Assembly: GCA_023659895.1 (NCBI GenBank)
Contig: JAGXOL010000002.1
Span: 4,388-68,387, forward strand
Length of the DNA stretch: 64,000 nt
Origin: Candidatus Aenigmarchaeota archaeon LH_S7
GTDB taxonomy: Archaea; Aenigmatarchaeota; Aenigmatarchaeia; QMZS01
Direction of reading: 5' to 3'
The notes beneath the pieces are model-generated. The model was given only the letters and a program-made list of their open reading frames with translations. It was not told where the DNA came from and ran no database searches. Positions 1,304 to 48,715 of this stretch are shown piece after piece. Each line of letters opens with the position of its first letter. The first letter of the stretch is position 1. The translations under genes and the position numbers were made by a program.

Positions 1304-1441
1304 GGGCCTGTAGTTCAATCTGGCAGAACGCTGCCCTTGCAAGGCAGAGGCTGTGGGTTCAAAGGGAACTTTTAGAAAAAGTTCCAAAGAAAGGTCTACC
1401 AACTCCAAAAGAAAAATGATACGAAAATCCCACCGGGTCCA
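1304..1441 (+). tRNA. tRNA-Ala(UGC) with a 64-nt intron in the T-loop (59/60; intron 1364-1427)
   Basis: The exons fold as acceptor GGGCCTG/CGGGTCC with the G3:U70 Ala identity pair, D stem GTTC/GAAC, anticodon arm CTGCC-CTTGCAA-GGCAG and T stem GTGGG/CCCAC, with the TTCAAA|T loop interrupted. CCA is not encoded. Confidence 0.85.
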
Positions 1442-4136: not shown

Positions 4137-4164
4137 AACTTAAAATGTGAATTATTTCTTAATA

Positions 4165-5241
4165 ATGGAGGTCAAAAAAAGGGTTGAGAAGATTCTGGAA
4201 AAATATAATATTTGTGATACTTGCTTAGGGAGACAATTTCATGGTCTCTATCCTGAAAAAAGTAATAAAGAAATCGGGGAAAAGTTGAAATATGATTTTG
4301 ATTATAGAAAGAAAAAAGAATGTTATTTTTGTGGAGGTTTTTTTGAGAATTTTGAGAAAGAATTAAAAAAAATTGAGAGGGAATTAAAAAAATATGAATT
4401 TCATACGTTCCTAGTTGGTTCTGAGTTTCCCAGAAAAATGATTCAAAGAGAGGAAAAACTTTGGGAGGAAAATGGGGTTGACCTTTGTGAGGCAATAAAA
4501 ACAAATTTGAATAGAGAAGTTGGATTGGAATTGAGAAAAAGATTGGGAAAAGAAGTGGATTTTGAGATTCCTGATGTAATGGTTATTGTTGATTTAATTA
4601 AAAATAAAACTATAGTGCAAGCATCTCCTTTGTATGTTGAAGGAACTTATAAAAAAATTCTTCCTAGAAGTAAAATCCAAAAAACAATAGAAAGTAATTT
4701 TTTGAGAAAAAGTAAGAGTGAGAAGGTAATATTTTATTCTGCTGGGAGGATGGAAGAGAATGTTGTCACTTCATTTTACAAAGACTTTCTTGTTAAGTTG
4801 AAAGCTCCTAGAAAAAGGAGATTAAATTTGAGAGAGCTGGAAAGGAAAATAAACCAAAACAAATCGGTTAAGGTAAAGGATTTAGGATATTCAAAGAAAA
4901 AGAAGATTGAAGATCTTAAAAGCAGGCATTTGGTTTCTTATTCAGTTGTTCTAAAATTTGGTAAATTAGATGGAGAAAAGAAAGAGATTGCAGATAGTTT
5001 AAGAAAATTGGAGAACAAAAAAGTGCACCAGGAACTAAAAAACAAAATCAGGAAGCCTAAAATCAGTAAATTAGAAAGAAAATTTGAAGATAAAAAATTA
5101 AAGTTAAATTTGGAAAGCACAGAAAATTTCTCAATTAATGATTTCCTGGACAAGAGTAAGCCTAACTTGAAGGATACAATAGGGGAGGAATTTAAAGTTA
5201 AAGAGATTGTGATGAAAAGTTGCAGAAAATTAAAGAAATAA
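4165..5241 (+). CDS. Pus10-like tRNA pseudouridine synthase (divergent)
   Basis: The N-terminus has zinc-ribbon cysteines CDTC..CYFCGG. The region SAGRMEENVV..LKAPRKRR aligns by eye to the Pus10 GREDxDxRMLG..P.KR block. The ATG at 4165 is preferred over the GTG at 4147. Confidence 0.6.
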   Translation: MEVKKRVEKILEKYNICDTCLGRQFHGLYPEKSNKEIGEKLKYDFDYRKKKECYFCGGFFENFEKELKKIERELKKYEFHTFLVGSEFPRKMIQREEKLWEENGVDLCEAIKTNLNREVGLELRKRLGKEVDFEIPDVMVIVDLIKNKTIVQASPLYVEGTYKKILPRSKIQKTIESNFLRKSKSEKVIFYSAGRMEENVVTSFYKDFLVKLKAPRKRRLNLRELERKINQNKSVKVKDLGYSKKKKIEDLKSRHLVSYSVVLKFGKLDGEKKEIADSLRKLENKKVHQELKNKIRKPKISKLERKFEDKKLKLNLESTENFSINDFLDKSKPNLKDTIGEEFKVKEIVMKSCRKLKK

Positions 5242-14767: not shown

Positions 14768-15774
14768 GGTGTGCGAAATAAAATAACCAACTAATCAACT
14801 CTCTACAGGAAGCCTAATTTCGCACACTTACTTCACTAAAGAGACCAGTTCCACCTTACTATTTTAGATTCTAAATCTGCTAAACTCCCTGAGACTTGTT
14901 TTGTTATTGATAATGCTGTCAACAGCAGTGAGCAATATTGCACTCAATGAAGCAAAAACAACAGATATTTTTCTTTTAATTCCAACAACATTCTGCCAAC
15001 ATTTATCCATTGAGTTTTTGATAACTGAATTGAACTGCTCAACAATATATCTCTTTTTCTTCAGTATTTTTGGAGTCCAACGTCTTTTCTTGGTGTTCCT
15101 CCTGTTTTTTGCAATTACTGGTTTTGCCCCTTTCTCTCTACAAGCTTTTCTATTGGCCTCTGAATCATAACCAGCATCTGCTAAAGCAAGTTTACCTGAG
15201 ACCAATAACTCTGGTAAGAAAGGGGAATCATGTTTGTTTCCTGTTGTTAAAATTGCCTTTAGAGGCAATCCAAGTTGGTTTACAGAAAGATGTGTTTTAA
15301 ATCCTTTGAATGCTCCTCTCGAGTAAAAACCAACTTTGGTATCTGGATCTTCTTCATCCACCAAAGGAGTTGAGTCTATTATCAATAGTTCTGTTGGAAT
15401 AATCATCTGAATTATTGATGACAATTTGTTGAATACTTGTGTTACTAGATCAGAATATGTTTTCTTCCAGACACTAAGTCTTGACCTGTCTGGAACTCCT
15501 GTTAATCCAAGGCTTCTTCTTATTTTTGGATTCATTCGTTGCTTCACAACGATGCACCGTTTTGCTTCGCAAAACGAGTGTGCTTTTAAATGTCTGATTA
15601 ACTGGCAATCATTGAATCCTCTAATTTTCTGGTAAATTAAAGTTCTTGTTCTTGGTACATTTCTATATCCTCTTCTACCTCTGCCTTTCTGAGATGGAAC
15701 CATCCCTTTGTTTACCAAATGTCTTATAATATTACCTGCTTCCATCTATTAATTTGGTTTATTTCGCACACCCC
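14768..15774 (-). mobile_element. IS4/IS5-superfamily insertion sequence, copy 1
   Basis: It has terminal inverted repeats GGTGTGCGAAATAAA at both ends, plus a third internal copy of GTGTGCGAAAT near the 3' end. TTTATATAT-like sequence is present on both flanks. Confidence 0.85.
14864..15745 (-). CDS. DDE transposase (DDE_Tnp_1, IS4/IS5 type), 293 aa, with a 16-aa insert
   Basis: It has the motifs IIDSTPL, ADAGYDS and RYIVEQFNSVIKN. It is about 90% identical to the copy at 42185-43018, apart from the HSFCEAKRCIVVKQRM insert. Confidence 0.9.
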   Translation of the reverse strand: MEAGNIIRHLVNKGMVPSQKGRGRRGYRNVPRTRTLIYQKIRGFNDCQLIRHLKAHSFCEAKRCIVVKQRMNPKIRRSLGLTGVPDRSRLSVWKKTYSDLVTQVFNKLSSIIQMIIPTELLIIDSTPLVDEEDPDTKVGFYSRGAFKGFKTHLSVNQLGLPLKAILTTGNKHDSPFLPELLVSGKLALADAGYDSEANRKACREKGAKPVIAKNRRNTKKRRWTPKILKKKRYIVEQFNSVIKNSMDKCWQNVVGIKRKISVVFASLSAILLTAVDSIINNKTSLREFSRFRI

Positions 15775-15944
15775 TATTTATATATTTTACAAAAATACGC
15801 TTGCTTAGGGCAAACTCTTCGCAAAACTTCGTTTTGCTCGTCTCGGACTTCGTCCTCAAGAATATAACAGCGATTAAGAGGTAAAATTTCTTACAGAAAT
15901 TTCCCAAATTTTCACTTCATGAAAACTTCTTTTAACGGCATACG

Positions 15945-23310: not shown

Positions 23311-23558
23311 GGGCATGTAGCTCAGCTGGATAGAGCACCGGCCTTCTAAGGAACCGAGGAAAGCCGGGGGTCGCAGGTTCGAAGGGAACTTTTAGAAAAA
23401 GTTCCATCAAAAAAAGAAGGGAACTTTTAGAAAAAGTTCCATCAAAAAAAGAAGGGAACTTTTAGAAACCTCGAAAAACAAAGTTTTTCGGGGCCCCATA
23501 AACCTTTGGTTTATGAGGAAGTTCCATCAAAAAAGTCTCGGGAATCCTGTCATGCCCA
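23311..23558 (+). tRNA. tRNA-Arg(UCU) with two introns (13 nt at 37/38, 23349-23361; 161 nt at 59/60, 23384-23544)
   Basis: The exons fold as acceptor GGGCATG/CATGCCC, D stem GCTC/GAGC, anticodon arm CCGGC-CTTCTAA-GCCGG and T stem GCAGG/CCTGT around TTCGAA|T. Confidence 0.85.
23384..23535 (+). repeat. Tandem 35-nt repeat inside the tRNA-Arg T-loop intron (2 exact units + 1 expanded unit)
   Basis: The unit GGGAACTTTTAGAAAAAGTTCCATCAAAAAAAGAA occurs at 23384-23418 and 23419-23453. The third unit starts at 23454 and has its hairpin loop replaced by two nested hairpins (23469-23493 and 23497-23515). Confidence 0.9.
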
Positions 23559-42078: not shown

Positions 42079-42155
42079 AAAATTTAACAAAATTTAATAA
42101 ATAAGTGTTGTTTTTTTCTTAACAATGAAGCAAGTATTTCTAAAAAAATAGTATA

Positions 42156-43116
42156 GGGGTGTGTGAAATAAACCAAATTAATAGATGGAAGCAGGTAATA
42201 TTATAAGACATTTGGTAAACAAAGGGATGGTTCCATCTCAGAAAGGCAGAGGTAGAAGAGGATATAGAAATGTACCAAGAACAAGAACTTTAATTTACCA
42301 GAAAATTAGAGGATTCAATGATTGCCAGTTAATCAGACATTTAAAAGCAAATCCAAAAGTTAGAAGAAGCCTTGGATTAACAGGAGTTCCAGACAGGTCA
42401 AGACTCAGTGTCTGGAAGAATCTATATTCGGATCTTGTGATAACTGCCTTCAACAAATTGTCATCAATAATCCAGATGATAATTCCAACAGACATGTTAG
42501 TTGCGGATTCAACTCCTTTAGTGGATGAAGAAGATCCAGATGCAAAAGTTGGTTTTAATTCAAGAGGGGCATTCAAAGGATTTAAAACACATCTTTCTGT
42601 AAACCATCTTGGATTGCCTCTAAAGGCAATTTTAACAACAGGCAATAAACATGATTCCCCTTTCTTACCAGAGTTATTGGTCTCAGGTAAACTTGCTTTA
42701 GCAGATGCTGGTTATGATTCAGAGGCCAATAGAAAAGCTTGTAGAGAGAAAGGGGCAAAACCAGTAATTGCAAAAAACAGGAGGAACACCAAGAAAAGAC
42801 GTTGGACTCCAAAAATACTGAAGAAAAAGAGATATATTGTTGAGCAGTTCAATTCAATTATCAAGAACTCAATGGATAAATGTTGGCAGAAGGTTAGAGG
42901 AATCATAAGAAAAACATCTGTTGTTTTTGCTTCATTGAGTGCAATATTGCTCACTGCTATTGACAGTATTATCAATAACAAAACAAGTCTCAGGGAATTC
43001 AGCAGATTTAGAATCTAAAATAGTAAGGTGGAAATTATCTCTTTAGTGGGAGCATGTGTGCGAAATTAGGCTTCCTGTAGAGAGTTGATTAGTTGGTTAT
43101 TTTATTTCGCACACCC
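42156..43116 (+). mobile_element. IS4/IS5-superfamily insertion sequence, copy 2
   Basis: It has the same termini as copy 1 (GGGGTGTGTGAAATAAACC ... TTATTTCGCACACCC). It is flanked by AAAAATAGTAT on both sides. Confidence 0.85.
42185..43018 (+). CDS. DDE transposase (IS4/IS5 type), 277 aa
   Basis: It has VADSTPL, ADAGYDS and RYIVEQFNSIIKN. Confidence 0.9.
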   Translation: MEAGNIIRHLVNKGMVPSQKGRGRRGYRNVPRTRTLIYQKIRGFNDCQLIRHLKANPKVRRSLGLTGVPDRSRLSVWKNLYSDLVITAFNKLSSIIQMIIPTDMLVADSTPLVDEEDPDAKVGFNSRGAFKGFKTHLSVNHLGLPLKAILTTGNKHDSPFLPELLVSGKLALADAGYDSEANRKACREKGAKPVIAKNRRNTKKRRWTPKILKKKRYIVEQFNSIIKNSMDKCWQKVRGIIRKTSVVFASLSAILLTAIDSIINNKTSLREFSRFRI

Positions 43117-47649: not shown

Positions 47650-47856
47650 CGCCTCGGGGAGGATTCTCGAACTTCAATGAGGGAATGCGTTGAAAGGAAG
47701 AAATGTGTTCTCCCTTTTAACCTCGAACCTCCGACCTCATGGTTTCTGCAGGTATATAACAGCTTCGCCCGGAACCTTCTTTTTAATCAGGTTTTGACTG
47801 GAAGCGGAAGCTCCAAAAGATTCCGACATGCGCTCTACCTGCTGAGCTACCGAGGC
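47650..47856 (-). tRNA. tRNA-Asn(GUU) with three introns (47764-47826 at 30/31; 47744-47756 at 37/38; about 47664-47721 at 59/60)
   Basis: Four exons (30+7+22+14 = 73 nt) assemble into acceptor GCCTCGG/CCGAGGC, D stem GCTC/GAGC, anticodon arm CATGG-CTGTTAA-CCATG, T stem GGAGG/CCTCC and discriminator G. Confidence 0.8.
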
Positions 47857-47905: not shown

Positions 47906-48487
47906 TCAAAATCCCCTGTGTTCTTTGTTATATTTTTTCTTAGCTTCTTCAAAATTTTGTAAGTTTAAACTAATTAATACTTTCTGATAAATTCTATCTA
48001 TCTCTTTATGCAATTCTATTGTATCTTTATATTTCTTTGTCAAGTTATTATGAATTAATTCATGAATCAAAATAAGTAAAAGGAGTTTATGATCTTCTTT
48101 ATAACTTAATGTTAGGGGATCTGAAAAAGAGTTTATTTTCCCAAAAACAATATAAACAGGGATATATTCTCTTTCCCAAGGCTTGTTGTTAGAAGCAATT
48201 AATTCTAAAATTTCTTGAACATAATTTTTAAATAAATTTATAAATGGATAACTATCTTTTTTTAATTTAATGAAATCTTGAGAACTAAAAGAAGGGTTAA
48301 AGCTTTTATTATAAATAAATGAGAATCTTATTTCTGTTTTTGGTATCATATATTTACCTGTAAACTCTTTCTTAAAAATGTTTTGATAAACACCTTTCTT
48401 CATTATTTCTGTTTTTTCCTCTTTACTTAACTTTCTGTGTTCTGGATCCAAAACATGTTTTTCCACTTCAAGATCCTTCTTTGCCAT
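47906..48487 (-). CDS. Hypothetical protein with HExxH motif
   Basis: This is a 193-aa ORF. LLILIHELIHNN suggests a zinc-metallopeptidase-like site. Confidence 0.5.
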   Translation of the reverse strand: MAKKDLEVEKHVLDPEHRKLSKEEKTEIMKKGVYQNIFKKEFTGKYMIPKTEIRFSFIYNKSFNPSFSSQDFIKLKKDSYPFINLFKNYVQEILELIASNNKPWEREYIPVYIVFGKINSFSDPLTLSYKEDHKLLLLILIHELIHNNLTKKYKDTIELHKEIDRIYQKVLISLNLQNFEEAKKKYNKEHRGF

Positions 48488-48561
48488 AATATTCTTTGTT
48501 AAAAACTTTCTTCTTTTGGATCAAACCTTCCTTTTTTGCTCAAGCTTTTTTAAAAGCTTGT

Positions 48562-48715
48562 TTTGATGGAACTTCCTCATAAACCGAAGGTTTATGGGGC
48601 CCCGAAAAACAAAGTTTTTCGAGGTTTTTAAAAGTTCCCTTCTTTTTTTGCTGGAACTTTTTTCTAAAAAGCTCATTCGAACCCGCGACTTTCAGGTGTC
48701 TTCTTTCATAGAGGC
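48562..48715 (-). other. Orphan tRNA-like 5' fragment fused to the intron hairpin module (split-tRNA half or pseudogene)
   Basis: The minus strand reads GCCTCTATGAAAGAAGACACCTGAAAGTCGCGGGTTCGAA. It continues with a degenerate repeat unit and the two-hairpin module seen in the tRNA-Arg intron. No CCCGC/acceptor 3' exon follows. Confidence 0.5.

Follow-up and report, generated by a model that had tools for sequence, protein, structure and literature searches.

The tRNA-Ala(UGC) gene near the start of the window (the whole 64-kb stretch of DNA analysed here) is interrupted in its T-loop, and the interrupting sequence opens with a hairpin that also occurs in the T-loop intron of a tRNA-Arg gene in the same window. 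The original prediction ascribed this to the transfer or homing of an intron element to tRNA position 59/60. The locus raises the question of what the two introns have in common, and of whether the common part arrived as an intron, arrived as a smaller unit or arose in place.

The host is an Aenigmarchaeote; the DNA ligase encoded in the window is 63–72% identical to proteins named Candidatus Aenigmarchaeota. Archaeal information-processing genes of the window include those for aRF1, a proteasome subunit, RNase P p30 and Pop5, and the thermosome, and exosome Rrp4 and Rrp41, Pus10 and ribosomal proteins are also encoded. Neither EndA, an exon-joining ligase, a reverse transcriptase, an HUH transposase nor a Y1 (RAYT) transposase was found among the ORFs of the 64-kb window. 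In DPANN archaea, broad-specificity EndA variants occur together with many disrupted tRNA genes (PMC5829648).

In the raw window, no tRNA was called by ARAGORN with its intron mode on or off, and the Rfam tRNA model recovered the 5' exons of tRNA-Ala and tRNA-Arg only, never whole genes. In-silico splicing changed this result. After the removal of 1364–1427, ARAGORN calls a tRNA-Ala(UGC) with G3:U70, and after the removal of 23384–23544, it calls a tRNA-Arg(UCU) with a 13-nt anticodon-loop intron. A canonical tRNA is thus restored by removal at both loci, as expected for BHB introns, and the 64-nt T-loop intron predicted in tRNA-Ala is borne out. A third tRNA gene was missed by both ARAGORN and Rfam, so that none of the window's three tRNA genes is detected by standard tRNA finders; a brute-force deletion search gave no settled answer on the anticodon identity of the third. 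The features are given below, where R1 is a covariance model built from 31 copies of the hairpin and its tail and run without filters.

1304..1363, plus strand: 5' exon of tRNA-Ala(UGC), positions 1–59; called by ARAGORN after splicing, 33.4 bits with the Rfam tRNA model.
1364..1427, plus strand: T-loop (59/60) intron of tRNA-Ala, 64 nt; seen as the structure of minimum energy when the T arm and intron are folded without constraint.
1365..1385, plus strand: hairpin GGAACUUUU-AGA-AAAAGUUCC; 37.4 bits with R1 over 1364–1398.
1428..1441, plus strand: 3' exon of tRNA-Ala, comprising U60, the 3' strand of the T-stem, the 3' strand of the acceptor and discriminator A; called by ARAGORN after splicing.
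23311..23558, plus strand: tRNA-Arg(UCU) gene with two introns; called by ARAGORN after splicing.
23349..23361, plus strand: anticodon-loop (37/38) intron of tRNA-Arg, 13 nt, AGGAACCGAGGAA; called by ARAGORN.
23384..23544, plus strand: T-loop (59/60) intron of tRNA-Arg, 161 nt; seen in a BHB-constrained fold.
23384..23453, plus strand: two identical 35-nt tandem units, each the hairpin followed by ATCAAAAAAAGAA; 52.7 bits each with R1.
23454..23538, plus strand: third unit of the tRNA-Arg intron, with a 50-nt insertion at 23469–23518 that consists of two other hairpins with 3-nt loops.
47650..47856, minus strand: third tRNA gene, with one or more anticodon-arm introns (about 90 nt) and a 58-nt 59/60 intron.
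48528..48715, minus strand: apparent decayed partial duplicate of the 3' part of tRNA-Arg; 36.4 and 33.8 bits with R1.

Pus10, encoded at 4147–5241 (plus strand), is the enzyme for pseudouridine at T-loop positions 54/55; its gene is 2.7 kb away from that of tRNA-Ala, whose T-loop is interrupted, and this proximity is probably coincidental.

The shared sequence, GGGAACTTTTAGAAAAAGTTCC, occurs exactly at 1364–1385, 23384–23405 and 23419–23440. No other match with up to three mismatches was found in the window, and none was found in 100 dinucleotide shuffles. In the tRNA-Ala intron, the 22-mer consists of G1364 and the hairpin at 1365–1385. A further copy in the tRNA-Arg intron is cut by a clean 50-nt insertion into 23454–23468 (GGGAACTTTTAGAAA) and 23519–23525, where the sequence resumes with AAGTTCC after the inserted 23469–23518. 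The claim of an identical 22-nt module in the two introns therefore stands, with three exact copies against none expected, and its common rather than independent origin is strongly supported because all 22 of 22 positions match, including the loop, and no match is expected by chance. Outside the module, the best local match between the two introns is the 7-nt AAAAGAA, and the description of the rest of the intron as unrelated was essentially right. Duplication of a tRNA gene as the source of the module is rejected, since the tRNA-Ala and tRNA-Arg exons are identical at only 49 of 75 positions (65%), which is ordinary for two different tRNAs. The best-supported reading of these comparisons is that the two copies would share a recent common origin of the hairpin unit and not of the whole intron.

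Runs of A leave the splice position formally undecided from 56/57 to 59/60, and only 59/60 yields the BHB register. As usually defined for an intron at p/p+1, this register pairs exon positions p−5 to p−2 with intron positions n−5 to n−2 as helix H; the 5' bulge consists of p−1, p and the first intron base, and the 3' bulge of the last two intron bases and p+1. The register was applied by hand and then checked by constrained folding. In tRNA-Arg, helix h is the T stem, helix H is UUCG/CGGG with two G-U pairs, and the bulges are AAG and AAU. The constrained BHB fold has an energy of −57.6 kcal/mol, compared with −59.4 kcal/mol without constraint; it is thus near-optimal, at 1.8 kcal/mol above the optimum. 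The whole pre-tRNA fold has a z-score of −6.2. The hairpin arm GGAACUUUU can also pair with the 3'-terminal AAAAGUCU of the intron, which gives a continuous helix h'.

In tRNA-Ala, the corresponding structure is the unconstrained optimum, where h is again the T stem, U54, U55 and C56 pair with A, A and G within 1423–1425, A57 faces C as a mismatch, and the bulges are (A)AAG and AAU. The 9-bp hairpin follows directly after the 5' bulge and is not continuous with the 3' strand of H. Thus, two 3-nt bulges, a 4-bp helix and flanking helices are found, with helix H of tRNA-Ala reduced to three pairs and the A-C mismatch; the modelled tRNA-Ala junction is a relaxed rather than a canonical BHB motif. 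In tRNA-Ala as in tRNA-Arg, the first base of the hairpin is the second of the T-loop intron, which is where helix h' belongs. From these folds, we infer splicing at 1363/1428 and 23383/23545.

All three 59/60 introns of the window have G as the first base and CGRRAA at the 3' end. The T-loop sequence UUCRAAU is universal; therefore, an intron with such ends could form a BHB-like junction in any tRNA. The 59/60 intron of the third tRNA (47721–47664, 58 nt) is without the hairpin and shows helix H as UUCG/CGAG with the same bulge layout. Its anticodon-arm intron starts at the 5' end with a probable decayed unit (47824–47791), whose local alignment score of 29 was equalled by 7 of 2935 random windows and is taken as suggestive. 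Also suggestive is the 13-nt anticodon-loop intron of tRNA-Arg, which opens with AGGAAC as the hairpin unit does; by hand reading, its helix H is CUUC/GAGG and its bulges are UAA and AAA.

A stem of 9 bp, a loop of 3 nt and an ATCAAAA tail together make up the unit, whose overall length is 28–36 nt. The credible R1 copies in the window are those at 1364, at 23384 and 23419 with the split third unit, and at 48528–48674 (minus strand), and nowhere else; the next-best match in the window reaches 13.8 bits (E = 0.4). The tail of the tRNA-Ala copy is degenerate (AAAGAAAGG). Within the window, the unit is always tied to tRNA introns. The region at 48528–48715 contains, in order, GTCGCGGGTTCGAAT, a diverged unit, an interrupted unit with the same 50-nt composite, and the variant hairpin CAAGCUUUU..AAAAGCUUG. 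No 3' exon was found for this pseudo-copy, which we read, from the order of its parts, as a decayed partial duplicate of the tRNA-Arg gene. It comes with a promoter-like second copy of the sequence upstream of the neighbouring tRNA and lies about 40–70 nt upstream of a 193-aa ORF (47906–48487); the identification of this ORF as RpoH was not confirmed, as no Pfam hit was obtained. The 50-nt composite is made of the palindromes CCTCGAAAAAC-AAA-GTTTTTCGGGG and CCCCATAAACC-TTT-GGTTTATGAGG, each with a 3-nt loop, and sits inside one hairpin unit at two loci, 23469–23518 and 48573–48626; the interrupted arrangement of the tRNA-Arg intron is seen again at 48563–48639.

Several known types of element were considered for the unit and rejected. 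An intron-encoded C/D box sRNA is rejected since the C box (RUGAUGA) and the D box (CUGA) are absent from both introns. A CRISPR repeat is rejected because the units are contiguous or solitary, with no spacers and no arrays at any locus. For a type III toxin-antitoxin (ToxI-like) RNA, there is no toxin gene nearby, and the neighbours encode aRF1 and a T2SSE-type ATPase. The R'/R'' consensus of an integron attC was not seen when the sequence was read by eye, and a homing-endonuclease intron is rejected as there is no ORF. The only transposon of the window is an IS5-like element with a DDE_Tnp_1 transposase, present as inverted copies at about 14770–15810 and about 42120–43090 that are 92–95% identical. 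Its terminal inverted repeat, GGGGTGTGCGAAATAAA, is unrelated to the hairpin, and a MITE derived from it is rejected for this reason. No consistent direct repeats of the kind expected for MITEs flank the copies of the unit, and no homing endonuclease or other mobility gene was found in association with it.

Beyond the window, the hairpin was found in five other tRNA genes (L028, L126, L037, L016 and L103), where it lies 0–1 nt past the 5' splice site.

L028 (Micrarchaeota) and L126 (a near-identical metagenome locus): tRNA-Ala(UGC) with a 37/38 intron of about 30 nt that is the unit alone.
L037 (Aenigmarchaeota): tRNA-Arg(UCG) with a 37/38 intron.
L016 (Aenigmarchaeota): tRNA-Ser(GCU) with a 50-nt 37/38 intron.
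L103 (Aenigmarchaeota): 59/60 T-loop intron with the variant hairpin UGAAC..GUUCA.

In the intron of L028 and L126, CAAA of the tail pairs with U32–G35, leaving the bulges CAA and AAA. The Aenigmarchaeota tRNA genes at L016 690–1060 and at about L103 5266–5500 (minus strand) have two or three introns each, and a second intron module, ..CTTTCTTGCAAAGAAAGCGTGCACGGAAAGAA.., is common to these two genomes. The homing to 59/60 that had been proposed is consequently upheld in part: every copy in the window follows the T-arm sequence GGTTCRAA, but the same hairpin with ATCAAAA is found at 37/38 elsewhere.

The orthologous tRNA-Ala locus was not recovered through its neighbouring DUF72 and DNA ligase genes. 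The Logan contig from the source sample stops inside the hairpin of the tRNA-Ala intron, the contig of a 98%-identical relative stops just short of the tRNA-Ala locus, and in more distant relatives the gene order is lost. Public assemblies of the source organism and of this relative break at or next to the hairpin (window position 1387; L143, L144), which, like the missed tRNA genes, is a practical point.

Copies outside tRNAs were obtained from pattern scans. A genome scan with the bare hairpin pattern was too loose, and its matches were mostly unrelated bacterial REP-like or terminator-like palindromes; at least seven archaeal matches and at least one bacterial match have ATCAAAA directly 3' of the hairpin, a motif that was not in the search pattern. 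A metagenome scan with the hairpin plus ATCAAA as the pattern returned 32 loci, one of which is an obvious tRNA. As most external copies come from such exact-pattern scans, the apparent conservation of the stem is inflated. No match to the unit was found among IMG/VR viral contigs, only chance-level partial matches were found among PLSDB plasmids and INPHARED phages, and the sequence was found in no published paper.

Long ORFs that begin 1–25 codons upstream of the unit, on its own strand, were seen in at least 12 distinct cases. In frame, the unit reads as GTFxKSSIK or ELLxKVPSK, and an AGA loop puts a stop into the third frame. Further copies are located close to the 3' end of TnpB-like ORFs, past stop codons or in the space between genes, and some loci carry the unit in 3' regions or antisense. 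A single bacterial contig of 1.1 Mb supplies seven loci and has at least nine copies of the unit. It encodes LigA, DnaN, an RHS-repeat protein and a SAM-I riboswitch, and its LigA has as closest named proteins those of Actinomycetota, with 46% identity. On this contig, a unit with the tail ATTGAAAG (L133 6234–6268, minus strand) is nested in an outer GGAAC/GTTCC stem, between a SAM-I riboswitch aptamer and the start of a gene read by eye as threonine synthase. Large arrays of tRNA genes from an uncultured bacterium lie at L138 4544–10681 and L125 261–5623 (contig Ga0153956_1000001), with at least 22 tRNAs in 11 kb; the tRNA at L125 261–395 has a 60-nt anticodon-loop insertion resembling an acceptor/T-arm minihelix.

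These copies bear on two further points of the original prediction. All copies of the window sit in tRNA-intron contexts, in line with the proposed search for the 22-mer at 59/60, but outside the window the unit is also found at 37/38 and in non-tRNA sequence. T-loop specificity has to be given up, since the unit also turns up close to the starts of ORFs, within TnpB-like genes, between genes and in bacterial DNA, and the third 59/60 intron lacks it. Nor does a whole intron element appear to have been transferred; only the 28–36-nt hairpin unit seems to move. The transferred-element idea is therefore partly supported, being right in spirit and wrong in its T-loop specificity, with no homing machinery evident.

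Several comparisons point to the gain or loss of the unit as a discrete insertion. Two TnpB-like homologues, L121 and L136, carry it at two different in-frame sites. One of these sites forms a hairpin, CTTGAGT-9 nt-ACTCAAG, in the allele that lacks the unit; in the filled allele the unit takes the place of the loop, with a net change of +21 nt. In an MgtE-like gene of Aenigmarchaeota, L020 and L152, whose proteins are 46% identical, both have a 36-nt in-frame insertion right after ATGAAGA, whereas it is missing from the closest orthologues, L151 (79% identical to L020) and L153 (77%), which have the same upstream gene and neighbourhood. This patchy pattern could also result from precise loss instead of gain. 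Tandem copies are common (the window, L016, L115, L139 and L140), and nested insertions are seen in the third unit of the window and in L133. No target-site duplications were found, and copy numbers are low, with three loci in 64 kb. An outer flanking stem of at least 5 bp surrounds 7 of 38 copies, compared with 3.9% of random controls; combined with the sites in tRNA loops, the difference suggests that the unit prefers hairpin loops.

The unit also shows signs of a maintained structure. The two outer stem pairs show six compensatory changes (GC to CG, AU or UA), and their covariation score of 0.069, compared with 0.026, was reached by none of 500 shuffles; it follows that the hairpin as such is maintained. 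In 31 of 33 copies the tail-bearing strand has a purine-rich loop, and the ATCAAAA tail is present in 31 of 33. The loop sequence is free to vary in other copies, yet it is AGA in both introns of the window.

On balance, the probable explanation is that the unit is a miniature REP-like tagged palindrome that spreads as a unit and is tolerated in archaeal tRNA genes since splicing removes it. The tagged palindrome, with its 9-bp stem, purine-rich 3-nt loop and A-rich tail AUCAAAA, would propagate at the DNA level, duplicate in tandem, nest in other hairpins and turn up at new sites. In the T-loop, the T stem would form the outer helix h, and U54–R57 would pair with the 3'-terminal CGRR of the intron as the 4-bp helix H. 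The 5' bulge would consist of R58, R59 and the first intron base G, and the 3' bulge of the last two intron bases AA and U60. The GGAAC hairpin, starting at the second intron base, would supply helix h'; EndA would presumably cleave within each of the two bulges, and the exons would then be joined by a ligase. We propose that the unit persists in archaeal tRNA loops because splicing removes it, and it may even create introns there. Outside tRNAs, it would persist where it is harmless, namely in frame near ORF ends, in the loops of structured RNAs and in intergenic DNA.

A more far-reaching form of this explanation, which we hold tentatively, describes the unit as a 28–36-nt mobile element of archaea and bacteria that prefers hairpin loops and the 5' ends of transcribed genes and that, once in the anticodon loop or T-loop of an archaeal tRNA gene, would on its own create an intron removable by EndA.

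Transposition of the whole intron is an unlikely alternative. Here, as in the Thermoproteales type, one T-loop intron would have been copied into the other tRNA gene, for example by reverse splicing or by ectopic conversion at the conserved T-arm, after which its 3' part diverged and the hairpin was kept fixed as helix h'. The shared 59/60 position, the first base G and the CGRRAA ends of both introns agree with such an event, the universal UUCRAAU would let one intron form a BHB junction in any tRNA, and Fujishima 2010, cited in PMC4090602, offers a precedent. However, only 22 nt are shared, the remainder matches over no more than 7 nt, and the AGA loop, although free to vary in other copies, is identical as well. 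The occurrence of the unit outside introns and in a bacterium, and a 59/60 intron without the hairpin, also speak against it.

The bias of the copies toward the sense strand and the 5' ends of ORFs is not predicted by random insertion followed by selection, which keeps an RNA-level function in contention. The hairpin with AUCAAAA would then be a functional RNA motif, either a protein site or a 5'-proximal stabilising or regulatory hairpin, rather than selfish DNA. The sense orientation within 1–25 codons of the start in at least 12 distinct ORFs, the strand-specific purine-rich loop and the covarying stem are consistent with this reading, and in the window itself the unit also occurs upstream of an ORF in sense orientation. 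Nevertheless, we regard it as rather doubtful, because the unit sits in genes with no relation to one another, is read in two frames and lies in 3' regions or antisense at some loci, close orthologues differ in carrying it, decayed copies are common, and no candidate binding protein is known.

An origin by retroposition is improbable. The stretch conserved among the dispersed copies, GGAAC through ATCAAAA, has the same ends as the Micrarchaeota tRNA-Ala(UGC) intron, so that the excised RNA of about 30 nt could have been reverse-transcribed and inserted, and both the A-rich tail and the sense-strand bias would fit. Against this, at least nine copies are in a bacterium, which is without such splicing, and the window has neither a reverse transcriptase nor target-site duplications at the copies. 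Finally, a chance match, convergence toward a helix suited to the splicing motif, or an error of assembly, to which the breaks of assemblies at the hairpin might point, is scarcely credible in view of the absence of expected chance matches, the identity of the loop as well as the stem, the complete and valid tRNAs formed by the flanking exons, and the copies in independent projects.

If the more far-reaching form holds, the unit would be the missing vehicle by which archaeal tRNA genes gain introns and introns undergo "transposition"; that unrelated tRNAs can have similar introns has been known since 2010, without a mechanism (PMC4090602). The unit is defined and searchable: one lineage has it as an entire intron, several DPANN phyla have it at intron 5' ends, at 37/38 as well as 59/60, and outside tRNAs it shows gain or loss between homologues. 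The gain of tRNA introns thereby becomes a testable and tractable problem.

Among known systems, the non-canonical BHB introns of archaea resemble the present case in the interruption of a complete tRNA at the T-loop (59/60), the helix-bulge-helix-bulge arrangement and the DPANN host (PMC5829648). They differ in that h' here is a local, self-contained palindrome that also occurs outside tRNAs, and in that the tRNA-Ala motif is relaxed. In Thermoproteales, near-identical introns occur in tRNA genes of different specificity by an unknown mechanism (Fujishima 2010, cited in PMC4090602). These transposed introns are alike in having a common sequence across tRNA specificities, whether the position is canonical or not. 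By contrast, the similarity here does not extend over whole introns (22 nt are identical and the rest matches over at most 7 nt), and the shared module of 22–36 nt is also found in ORFs, intergenic DNA and a bacterium.

REP elements are tagged extragenic palindromes that are thought to be moved by RAYT transposases; some lie within genes, and for some a role as an RNA hairpin is suspected (PMC3733652). Like them, the unit is a palindrome of 20–40 nt with a conserved unpaired tag at one end (PMC3733652), here ATCAAAA in 31 of 33 copies, so that the opposite strand reads TTTTGAT followed by the hairpin. The unit differs from REPs in that its tag is neither GTAG nor CGTC, it is found in archaea, and it often lies in genes or introns; in place of high copy numbers and mostly extragenic sites, there are three loci in 64 kb and many copies in ORFs and introns. 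The palindromic elements of Rickettsia, reportedly described by Ogata et al. in 2000, are said to be selfish palindromes inserted in frame in protein-coding genes. They differ in their size of about 100–150 bp, their restriction to one genus and the lack of a link to tRNA introns. The combination seen here, a unit that is or begins DPANN tRNA introns at both 37/38 and 59/60 and that has coding and bacterial copies with gain or loss, was not found in the literature. Its components are already known, namely non-canonical BHB introns (PMC5829648), near-identical introns in unrelated tRNAs (PMC4090602) and tagged REPs, some of which lie in genes (PMC3733652).
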